DNA of 38,253 bases from Escherichia phage Fostie, in sequence record PP925832.1; one strand, 5' to 3'. Below the pieces are notes generated by a model that saw only the letters and a program-made list of their open reading frames with translations, had not been told where the DNA came from and ran no database searches. Shown one piece after another: positions 3,564-4,665 of this stretch (positions within the stretch are counted from its first letter, which is position 1; each line of letters opens with the position of its first letter). A program made the position numbers and the translations under genes.

Positions 3564-3590
3564 TAAAAAATGCCACCCGAAGGTGGCCTG
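3564..3590 (-). terminator. Intrinsic terminator-like hairpin with UUCG tetraloop between I and J
   Basis: Minus strand reads GCCACC-TTCG-GGTGGC followed by T6; near-identical copy at 4209..4236. Confidence 0.5.
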
Positions 3591-3606
3591 TAAAAAGGTT
3601 AGTTAT

Positions 3607-4197
3607 CTACTGCTGATCTTCGACATAAATTCCGGCAGAAATAATTGCTCCGCCTATTAGCCGACGGCCATAAAGGAGCGGTACCGGGTAGCCTTGCGCT
3701 GCGGTGTTTGTTACACCACCGAATGCGTAGGAAGCACGGTTATCCGCGCTTTGTTTGCTGGCTAATCCGGTTGGTTGGGGTGATAGCATTTGGACTACGC
3801 CACCAAGAATCAGAGCGCCACCAGCCTGATAGAAAAATGGTGAAGCTCCAGCAAATGGCGTGAAATTTAATACCACCCCAACGGCCACCAATACAGCACC
3901 TAAAATAGTTTGTAATACACCTGCTTTTTTACTTCCAATCGGCACTGGAACGATTCTTATAACCTCCCCCCTGACAGGAAATCCTAATTCATCAACGCCA
4001 ATATTTTTCTTCCCGCGAAAAACCGCATAAGAAAGCCCTCTTTGCTTACTTGTATTCATGAATTTTTCGAAACCATTAATCGTAGCAGATAAGGCTTTGC
4101 AAGCTTCTTTGGTTGTGCTTATTGAACGATGATGTGTTTTACCAAAAGTCTTTCCAAGAACGCCGCCAAGTTCAATGCGAGTCATTACATCTGGCAT
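3607..4197 (-). CDS. I: Tail assembly protein I
   Basis: 196-aa ORF between K and J with Gly/Ala-rich hydrophobic C-terminal half typical of lambda I; SD GGGGTGA upstream of ATG at 4197. Confidence 0.75.
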   Translation of the reverse strand: MPDVMTRIELGGVLGKTFGKTHHRSISTTKEACKALSATINGFEKFMNTSKQRGLSYAVFRGKKNIGVDELGFPVRGEVIRIVPVPIGSKKAGVLQTILGAVLVAVGVVLNFTPFAGASPFFYQAGGALILGGVVQMLSPQPTGLASKQSADNRASYAFGGVTNTAAQGYPVPLLYGRRLIGGAIISAGIYVEDQQ

Positions 4198-4208
4198 AAA
4201 TCACCCCA

Positions 4209-4236
4209 ATAAAAAAGCCACCCGAAGGTGGCCTTT
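4209..4236 (-). terminator. Intrinsic terminator-like hairpin with UUCG tetraloop after lipoprotein gene
   Basis: Minus strand GCCACC-TTCG-GGTGGC followed by T6; duplicate of the hairpin at 3564..3590. Confidence 0.5.
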
Positions 4237-4254
4237 TCCTGTTAAATATCAACT

Positions 4255-4665
4255 CTAATTTATCGACATCGGGAGTATATCTACATTCCCACTCTGATCG
4301 ATAAATATCCTTAGAACGCGAGGAGTATTTTCTTTAATTGAAAACTCCCGTTCTTTTTTAGGTGCACCATTACATAGGCCTTTCCCGGCAAACCCAGCCC
4401 CAATCAATACATCGCCAGGTTTTAAGTAAGCAGTGACTTTTTCCCCGGTATCAAGTTCAGCCAAATATTTACCATTGATATAGGTTGTTATAGCGCATCC
4501 ACCAGCAACGAACCCTTTATCGCGAATGATAGTTACGGCAGTCGTATTTGTTGACTGTTGAAATTCTTTCGGTGCTGACACTTCTTTTGCATACTGCGGG
4601 AGAACTGGCTCAGTCGAACAACCAGCCAAAATTAACAACGAAAATGCCAATAATGTTTTTTTCAT
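4255..4665 (-). CDS. Small lipoprotein moron inserted between K and I (candidate superinfection-exclusion lipoprotein)
   Basis: ATG at 4665 encodes MKKTLLAFSLLILAGC (signal peptide plus lipobox); visibly AT-rich relative to flanking tail genes; followed by its own terminator hairpin. Confidence 0.6.
   Translation of the reverse strand: MKKTLLAFSLLILAGCSTEPVLPQYAKEVSAPKEFQQSTNTTAVTIIRDKGFVAGGCAITTYINGKYLAELDTGEKVTAYLKPGDVLIGAGFAGKGLCNGAPKKEREFSIKENTPRVLRIFIDQSGNVDILPMSIN

Follow-up and report, generated by a model that had tools for sequence, protein, structure and literature searches.

The closest described counterparts of the element treated here—a lipoprotein gene lodged between tail genes K and I of Escherichia phage Fostie (PP925832.1)—are the tail-operon morons of the phages HK97 and HK022 (AF069529 and AF069308). 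Juhala et al. reportedly located these in 2000 in two slots, one between K and I and one between I and J, and the original definition of a moron includes a promoter of its own. In both phages the slots beside I hold small, AT-rich cargo, and the GenBank records label such genes morons. The HK97 and HK75 records also annotate terminators before I and before J, with the HK97 morons sitting between I and the second annotated terminator. Terminator-bounded cargo slots around I are already described for HK97 and HK022, and an orthologue of the Fostie protein in phage mEp390 is annotated as a lipoprotein. Further points of comparison are envelope proteins of other phages. Cor of phi80, N15, HK022 and mEp167 is, like the Fostie protein, a small lambdoid lipoprotein encoded in the tail/host-range region, and Ltp of Streptococcus phage TP-J34, which with HK97 gp15 belongs to the entry blockers dependent on the tail or the tape-measure protein, is a lipoprotein as well. 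T5 Llp and Rtp45 are periplasmic exclusion lipoproteins, Rtp45 having a mass of about 6 kDa (PMC12685063). The product of another tail-operon moron, HK97 gp15, protects the lysogen by an entry block that depends on the tail region of the phage (PMC3594210). The Fostie locus was compared with these systems within the whole 38,253-nucleotide (nt) stretch analysed, hereafter the window.

The Fostie lipoprotein gene belongs to the moron-type cargo cassettes and occupies the K-I slot in the tail-tip module of HK97-like phages (Hendrixvirinae). A preliminary description, made from the letters of the window, had placed a lipoprotein gene of 136 amino acids (aa) between K and I, and the open reading frame (ORF), a lipobox and a match to phrog_890 bear this out. 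The same description called the gene a moron, a designation that stands with respect to insertion, composition and terminator and falls short with respect to the promoter. The gene is an extra one between conserved genes: in lambda, K and I overlap and leave no slot between them, and in relatives of Fostie the site is taken by other cargo or by a pseudogene. Its guanine-plus-cytosine content (GC) and its GC at third codon positions (GC3) deviate from those of K and J, and it is followed by a predicted terminator of its own, the hairpin before I (Table 1), whose stem shows compensatory changes in relatives. A promoter of its own, however, was not detected: neither in the window nor in close relatives do the 160 nt upstream contain a site matching the consensus at 8 or more of 12 positions, and a second scan found no sigma-70-like site ahead of the gene, a result still compatible with a weak or non-sigma-70 promoter. 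The mEp390 record annotates a 'promoter' just ahead of the terminator (mEp390 locus 2357-2383), which cannot drive the lipoprotein gene because it lies inside the 3′ end of that gene. The arms of the slot are fixed: the left arm consists of the K end plus a conserved ribosome-binding spacer, the right arm of the terminator hairpin just before I. A spacer of 29 nt with a good ribosome-binding site separates the K stop codon from the start of the lipoprotein gene, and this spacer is kept in relatives, LMessi and Fraca included despite their different cargo.

What fills the slot varies among relatives. The nearest deposited phages over positions 3400-5000, mEp390 and CharmingMan (92.8% identity), have the same K-lipoprotein-I-J order and the same hairpins, and their orthologues, gp17 and CDS0051 (annotated 'lipoprotein'), share 94-96% aa identity with the Fostie protein; some contigs of the IMG/VR database are nearer still (98-99% for the lipoprotein, 98% for I). 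In HK022, HK106 and HK75 the slot holds a YebO-like membrane protein of 74 aa (gp20, phrog_5031), and in HK97 a gp20 pseudogene with an in-frame stop. A 113-aa lipoprotein of phrog_914, unrelated to phrog_890, is found in mEpX2 and HK140 (at about 2356-2700 of their loci), while LMessi has phrog_914 and phrog_2320 lipoproteins (locus 2364-3053) and Fraca phrog_914 and a truncated second one (locus 2352-2963). The K-I cargo genes of these Hendrixvirinae relatives have a GC of 0.37-0.44 throughout. In the I-J slot, HK97 and HK022 carry the morons gp22 and gp23, upstream of the I-J hairpin. HK022 shares with Fostie an identical I-J hairpin, from which that of HK97 departs by one base in the loop, as well as a homologous hairpin before I; it differs in its cargo, having the 74-aa gp20 where Fostie has the 136-aa phrog_890 lipoprotein, an empty I-J slot and no detected promoter. 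Since relatives do without it, the lipoprotein is dispensable for tail assembly. At the left end of the cargo, similarity resumes at 4614 in mEpX2 and HK140 and at the start codon (4662) in LMessi and Fraca. The first 17 codons (4614-4665), from the signal peptide through the lipobox cysteine, have DNA-level counterparts in the gene for the unrelated 113-aa lipoprotein of mEpX2 (locus 2646-2697) and HK140, which places one recombination joint exactly at the end of the signal peptide.

The cassette stands out in base composition. The impression that the lipoprotein gene and the 5′ half of I are AT-rich relative to their flanks is confirmed by windowed calculation. In 200-nt windows, GC is 0.385-0.45 over 3801-4800 as against 0.51-0.60 in both flanks; between about 3780 and 4700 it is down to 0.385-0.42. 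With 300-nt windows, the block ranks no higher than the 5th percentile of the full 38 kb and is the sole such island within the structural genes. The lipoprotein gene has a GC of 0.41 and a GC3 of 0.33, compared with 0.55 and 0.61 for K and 0.55 and 0.64 for J. Along I, GC3 amounts to 0.29 for aa 1-95, 0.31 for aa 96-130 and 0.42 for aa 131-196. None of the other AT-rich islands (300-nt GC below 0.43), at 28039-30623, 34431-35204 and 36908-37501, touches the structural genes; they fall in the early/immunity region and near cor. The plus-strand ORFs 3645-3863, 3860-4030 and 4548-4718 were taken as spurious.

Gene I is flanked by two near-identical hairpins, GCCACC-UUCG-GGUGGC followed by a U-run, much as had been noticed beforehand. 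The 16-mer GCCACCTTCGGGTGGC occurs in exactly two copies in the window, at 3572-3587 and 4217-4232 on the minus strand, where shuffled sequences lead one to expect 0.02, and both copies lie inside a 30-nt direct repeat of 90% identity. The hairpin that follows the lipoprotein gene leads into a T-run, has a folding energy of -18.4 kcal/mol (z -3.9) and ends 13 nt ahead of the I start codon; it scored as terminator-like on the plus strand too. The hairpin between I and J, also followed by a T-run (-14.1 kcal/mol), forms the right edge of the second cargo slot, the one that is empty in Fostie. It is identical in seven of ten aligned HK97-group phages and varies by one or two bases of the loop in HK97, Fraca and the relatives of Fraca, so that the same or a loop-variant form is present in HK97, HK022, mEpX2, HK140, HK106, HK75, LMessi, Fraca and mEp390.

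The preliminary description had spoken of duplicated terminators. Two terminator-like hairpins are indeed present, but they do not go back to a local duplication, both sites being occupied in most of the loci surveyed. Among about 56 loci in which I and J could both be located, and counting only perfect stems of at least 5 bp, a GC-rich hairpin with a T-run precedes I in 50 and J in 47; most of the remaining loci have a stem with one mismatch. Pseudomonas phages share hairpins at both sites, and lambda shares the one between I and J. The stems take the forms GCCACC, ACCACC, ACCGCC, CCCGC, GCCTCC and GCCAGC. When stem pair 6 was left free to mismatch in the search, it was G-C in 31, A-U in 16, G.U in 8 and C-G in 2 of 59 distinct tetraloop hairpins, and unpaired in only 2. 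That pairing is kept despite varied bases shows the hairpin structure to be under selection. Both hairpins are therefore best read, by their predicted folds and their conservation, as intrinsic terminators closing two cargo slots around I. The identity of the two Fostie hairpins reflects the commonest stem of the clade. Concerted evolution or gene conversion between the hairpins of one genome was considered as a cause and rejected, since the 29 of 54 genomes that share the 5-bp stem core at both sites are, by a rough estimate rather than a formal test, near what chance would give with CCACC/GGTGG frequent at both sites. The only Rfam match at positions 3000-6000, to the terminator end of sroH, fell below threshold.

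The compositional break inside I had been taken to mark a recombination junction, and alignment with related phages does place a mosaic junction at about aa 128 of the protein. Compared with HK97, HK022, mEpX2, HK140, HK106, HK75, LMessi and Fraca, the nucleotide identity of Fostie I is 75-98% over 3607-3770, drops to 40-55% over 3807-3886 and amounts to 48-78% from there to the hairpin. At the protein level, near-invariance in 11 phages begins at LGGVxQxLSPQP (about aa 128) and continues to the C-terminus, with hardly any variation in the last ~55 aa, whereas the N-terminal domain and the hydrophobic middle occur in several alleles each. I is a recognizable member of its family (PF06805 at residues 5-89, 27.2 bits above a cut-off of 23.8; phrog_32, 1.2e-74) and is 28% identical to lambda gpI over 191 of its 196 residues; its invariant part aligns inside residues 134/135-223 of the lambda protein. 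In lambda, these residues form a trimeric plug in the lumen of the tail tip that contacts gpJ and the C-terminus of gpH, while the N-terminal part of gpI is unresolved (PMC10721106, PMC12617516). Because the invariant part of I aligns with this plug region, the break between the AT-rich and the GC-rich part of I is a domain boundary, at the edge of the J-contacting part that is built into the virion. The exchanged segment often extends from the cargo into I and stops where that part begins: the portion of I that has to fit the conserved N-terminus of J stays with J, and the ubiquitin-like domain and the first hydrophobic stretch move with the cargo.

The break is nevertheless partly a trait of the group and not the mark of a recent event in Fostie, since the contrast is present in all alleles of the group: the 5′ half of I is GC-poorer in every HK97-group allele examined (0.41-0.47 versus 0.52-0.56). 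Fostie I has the most extreme contrast (0.397 versus 0.515). Lambda I has no gradient (0.60 versus 0.58), and the possibility that the protein sequence itself imposes the gradient is ruled out in that lambda encodes the same domain at 60% GC. Pairwise identities among 43 non-identical loci also bear on the junction, though they are to be taken as descriptive only, because the pairs are not independent. Lipoprotein identity correlates best with that of the N-terminal domain of I (Spearman 0.72), followed by the K C-terminus (0.61), K N-terminus (0.53), J N-terminus (0.44), I C-terminus (0.41) and I middle (0.38). Two IMG/VR prophage contigs have a 343-aa DDE_3 transposase, IS630-like by its domains, inside the AT-rich block (4282-5313 and 3852-4883). 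It interrupts the 5′ part of I in one contig and the lipoprotein gene in the other, and both prophages are presumably dead.

The N-terminus of the lipoprotein, MKKTLLAFSLLILAGC, has the make-up MKK-TLLAFSLLI-LAGC, codons 1-16 occupying 4618-4665. The lipobox LAGC falls on residues 13-16, and the sequence corresponds to a signal peptidase II-type lipoprotein signal peptide with Cys16 at its processing site; the Pfam model LPAM_1 reaches 15.6 bits, under its cut-off of 20. An alternative GTG start at 4701, 12 residues ahead of the signal peptide, is used in the mEp390 record, where gp17 consequently appears without an N-terminal signal peptide, but it is unlikely to be the true start. The mature domain comprises 121 aa, is all-beta and contains two further conserved cysteines, C57 and C98. 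All three cysteines are invariant in 41 enterobacterial homologues, and Cys16 also in a set of 50, a pattern that fits a lipid anchor and a putative periplasmic disulfide. An AlphaFold2 model (predicted local distance difference test 86.5, predicted template-modelling score 0.79) folds nine strands into a beta-sandwich, for which fold searches retrieved generic beta-sandwiches only. Residues 1-134 match positions 1-135 of the 136 positions of the phrog_890 profile ('lipoprotein'; E 2.3e-46). Searches of Pfam, NCBIfam and PADLOC yielded nothing significant, and the lipoprotein profile matched PDB sequences in their signal peptides only. The protein resembles DUF2846 (PF11008) in its beta-rich pattern but stays below the threshold of that family (12.2 bits against a gathering cut-off of 34.3); weak matches are seen for 9 of 50 distant relatives at E ≤0.01, the best having E 2.1e-5. 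The ratio of nonsynonymous to synonymous substitution rates relative to mEp390 is 0.06 for the lipoprotein, 0.04 for K and 0.05 for I, and the lipoprotein gene is thus kept by strong purifying selection.

An exhaustive search at E ≤0.001 assigned 776 clusters at 50% identity to the family, almost all of 130-145 aa, and all of its named members are labelled 'hypothetical protein'. Their sources are Citrobacter, Klebsiella, Enterobacter, Leclercia, Salmonella, Morganella, Pantoea, Rahnella and Pseudomonas aeruginosa. The distance from the homologue to gene I downstream is 42-77 nt in 59 of 69 loci, two of which belong to Pseudomonas phages with 30-32% identity. In eight of the I-adjacent loci, a further 0.3-2.5 kb of DNA sets the lipoprotein gene apart from K. 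In Rahnella, this space (locus 2912-3882) is taken up by a SocA/Panacea-domain protein and a 133-aa partner, which together look like a toxin-antitoxin pair. In a further locus, from Morganella, the lipoprotein gene stands directly before I, with a gene for an RNase T-family exonuclease just upstream (3153-3995). The exceptions to I adjacency are two prophages interrupted by an insertion sequence, two unclear contigs, HK639, whose homologue follows the tape-measure gene, and SSU5/pMT1-like phage-plasmids, whose homologues lie among repressor, partition, toxin-antitoxin and anti-restriction genes. This accessory setting on phage-plasmids fits a function in the host cell rather than in the tail. 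Homologues were found on 437 plasmids, with carriers including Yersinia pestis and Salmonella. A profile scan of genome contigs with the enterobacterial lipoprotein alignment gave three true loci. At the nucleotide (megablast) level, the block of lipoprotein gene and 5′ part of I (positions 3560-4700) found no match among 5,426 complete E. coli genomes. Genera such as Citrobacter, Klebsiella, Enterobacter and Kluyvera commonly harbour homologues, and the carrier phages plate on E. coli; judged from these sequence records, the natural host of Fostie may not be E. coli.

As to what the lipoprotein does, its signal sequence offers a starting point. Once exported, the protein would be lipidated at Cys16, and the serine at position +2 would, by the +2 rule of E. 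coli, direct it to the periplasmic face of the outer membrane. K and the lipoprotein gene probably share a late-operon transcript; the terminator that follows the cargo would halt RNA polymerase unmodified for antitermination before I and J, and the late antiterminator would permit read-through. Acting from the periplasm, the lipoprotein would attach either to an outer-membrane component or to the tail-tip/tape-measure conduit of an incoming phage, and would in this way shield the carrier cell from other phages at the level of the envelope. Such protection would be independent of the phage's own receptor-binding domain, since Cor already fills that function. Taken as a package, a moron cassette whose lipoprotein protects the carrier cell at the envelope has about an even chance of being correct, and within the package receptor masking and an entry block of the Ltp/gp15 type are about equally likely.

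Receptor masking of the kind attributed to Cor, T5 Llp and Rtp45 would mean that the lipoprotein binds the periplasmic face of the phage's own receptor and blocks adsorption of the phage itself and its relatives. It is the mode of every characterised exclusion lipoprotein of this kind, Llp and Rtp45 (PMC12685063). A predicted outer-membrane lipoprotein, kept under purifying selection and encoded in the host-range region of a siphophage, would fit it, and its plausible location, anchored in the outer membrane on the periplasmic side, is that of Llp and Rtp45, which bind FhuA and LptDE. The analogy with Cor and T5 Llp, on which the preliminary description had founded its suggestion of superinfection exclusion, nonetheless drew no support from any feature tested, there being neither homology nor a tracking of the J C-terminus, and a cor gene being already present. 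Fostie has its own cor, the gene of the classical lipoprotein for FhuA exclusion, in its usual place on the minus strand at 36940-37170, encoding 77 aa that are 74% identical to mEp390 Cor (phrog_1119, E 2.6e-33), and mEp390 likewise has cor directly after J. The lipoprotein is longer than Cor (136 versus 77 aa), its gene lies upstream of I rather than in the position after J, which is occupied by cor, and it gave no BLASTP match to the Cor proteins of mEp390 and HK022 at E ≤10; a PHROG scan did not return phrog_1119 among its matches. Its profile match to T5 Llp (PDB 8A60_B) is confined to the signal peptide (E 0.25). Moreover, Llp and Rtp45 are small and their genes are linked to that of the receptor-binding protein, whereas the mature Fostie protein has 121 aa, as against about 6 kDa for Rtp45 (a "small" Llp) and 77 aa for the Cor precursor, and its gene is about 3.5 kb away from the receptor-binding part of J.

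Nor does the lipoprotein follow the receptor-binding end of J. The C-terminal 333 aa of Fostie J are 92-93% identical to those of HK106, HK022 and HK75, all of which have the YebO-like cargo, but only 71% identical to those of mEp390, which shares the lipoprotein; the same difference in the J C-terminus sets the mEp390 and CharmingMan loci apart from that of Fostie. With the same lipoprotein accompanying two J C-termini and the same J type accompanying other cargo, the type of cargo is not linked to the receptor-binding end. As related phages may share one receptor, this mismatch weakens receptor masking and does not refute it. On balance, receptor masking appears unlikely. The genes that come after J, at the right end of the window, include, besides cor, homologues of N15 gp22 and gp23 (37277-37951 and 37951-38253).

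A block after adsorption, in which the lipoprotein intercepts the incoming hydrophobic gpI plug or the tape-measure protein and so prevents channel formation, in a manner resembling TP-J34 Ltp or HK97 gp15, would account for other features of the locus. The place immediately upstream of I is kept from Enterobacterales to Pseudomonas, the divergence of the lipoprotein best tracks that of the N-terminal region of I, and the HK639 homologue adjoins the tape-measure gene. Lambda gpI is thought to enter the outer membrane during infection (PMC10721106, PMC12617516), and HK97 gp15, also the product of a tail-operon moron, prevents entry in dependence on the tail region (PMC3594210). Adjacency to I can also be explained by slot structure and physical linkage, however, as unrelated cargo also stands directly before I, and the members on phage-plasmids are not beside tail genes. 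HK97 gp15 differs in being an inner-membrane protein; no homology of the lipoprotein to gp15 or to TP-J34 Ltp was seen, neither having been returned by the family searches. The interaction itself is a proposal by analogy, and a post-adsorption block of this kind is considered unlikely. A more specific version holds that the lipoprotein would be an exclusion factor of a new kind, catching the hydrophobic gpI plug segment, or the tape-measure C-terminus bound to it, at the periplasmic face of the outer membrane as the incoming lambda-like tip opens, and would be inherited with the variable N-terminal two-thirds of I through co-adaptation. Co-adaptation with I would explain the spacing of 42-77 nt from Enterobacterales to Pseudomonas, but this version is regarded as unlikely. 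A role as immunity protein against the NlpC/P60 peptidase of K was also considered: gpK was not detected in lambda virions (PMC10721106/PMC12617516), so that it would have no access to the periplasm of superinfected cells, and the idea was rejected on this ground.

A third explanation sees the protein as a lysogenic-conversion lipoprotein that serves host fitness without relation to phages, for example in serum resistance or envelope stress tolerance, as for lambda Bor. Prophage outer-membrane lipoproteins such as Bor are credited with such roles, as cited in PMC3594210, and the 437 plasmids mentioned above make the family widespread on the phage-plasmids of pathogens such as Yersinia pestis and Salmonella. 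Against this, the protein has no similarity to Bor or to any named family, no promoter for expression in the lysogen was found, and the block was absent at the nucleotide level from all 5,426 complete E. coli genomes. A host-fitness role unrelated to phages ranks as unlikely, yet as a serious rival.

Several points weigh against the preferred combination of a moron cassette and protection of the carrier cell. With no sigma-70-like promoter detected, expression of the lipoprotein in the lysogen, a requirement for a classic moron as for an exclusion gene, is uncertain; if expressed in the late phase alone, the protein might instead protect progeny or serve another late purpose. Its close and genus-spanning proximity to I may hint at a role tied to gene I. 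Finally, literature searches covering mEp390, the mEp phages, HK022 gp20, DUF2846 and Pseudomonas morons turned up no functional study of the family.

Table 1. Features in and around the two cargo slots beside gene I of Fostie, in positions of the window
Feature	Position	Strand	Basis or remark
Central tail fibre gene J, 1183 aa	2-3553	minus	ORF list, alignment of relatives
Intrinsic-terminator-like hairpin GGCCACC-UUCG-GGUGGC-A-UUUUUU between I and J	3565-3588	minus	fold energy, relatives
Conserved 3′ third of I, aa ~129-196, starting LGGVVQMLSPQP	3607-3810	minus	identity profile, alignment with lambda gpI
AT-rich block covering cargo gene and variable part of I	3780-4700	none	windowed GC (about 0.39-0.43), GC3
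Variable 5′ two-thirds of I, aa 1-~128: ubiquitin-like Lambda_tail_I domain and first hydrophobic Gly/Ala-rich stretch	3811-4197	minus	Pfam, identity profile
Intrinsic-terminator-like hairpin AAAAGGCCACC-UUCG-GGUGGCUUUUUU after lipoprotein gene	4211-4233	minus	fold energy, relatives
Lipoprotein gene, 136 aa, stop codon 4255-4257	4255-4665	minus	ORF list, phrog_890 match
K-to-cargo spacer, 29 nt, ribosome-binding site AAAGGGGATAGGGAT ahead of ATG	4666-4694	minus	sequence
Tail assembly gene K, 236 aa, JAB/JAMM and NlpC/P60	4695-5405	minus	left arm of cargo slot, conserved

The window is a circular permutation of the phage genome, as the genes that follow J in mEp390 are located at its right end, and J ends at base 2. 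The ORF list gives the minus-strand order H (6500-9859), M, L (5407-6165), K, lipoprotein, I (3607-4197) and J, with Pfam assigning K (JAB and NlpC/P60), L and I (Lambda_tail_I). K matches Prok-JAB (2.8e-20) and NLPC_P60 (5e-21) and is 81-98% identical at the aa level across all related loci; its catalytic signatures appear intact by eye in the translation, namely the JAMM motif HSHPDATTQPSELD and the NlpC/P60 cysteine (DCWG) and histidine (NHAGI). The conservation of the 3′ end of I extends to the N-terminal part of J, and the C-terminal 333 aa of J are of the HK022/HK106/HK75 type. Ahead of J, after the I-J hairpin, the minus strand carries UUUUUUAUGGGCGCAAUAUG (3540-3565), which is conserved as far as the Pseudomonas phages and holds an out-of-frame AUG opening a 10-codon ORF that overlaps the J start.

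Beyond the slots and the annotated orthologue known before, the comparison identifies the K-I slot of HK97-like phages as a hot spot for small envelope proteins, which it holds almost without exception and which comprise three mutually unrelated families of lipoproteins and one of membrane proteins. It also gives the mosaic joint in I a structural explanation, locating it at the edge of the virion-incorporated portion of gpI in contact with J, and it reveals the phrog_890 family as large, conserved, linked to I across genera and present in many prophages and phages. If the lipoprotein had no exclusion function, the gene would simply be another moron. If exclusion proved true, the family would be a new one among the few envelope defences encoded by phages, and part of the host-range interference among lambdoid phages would be explained.

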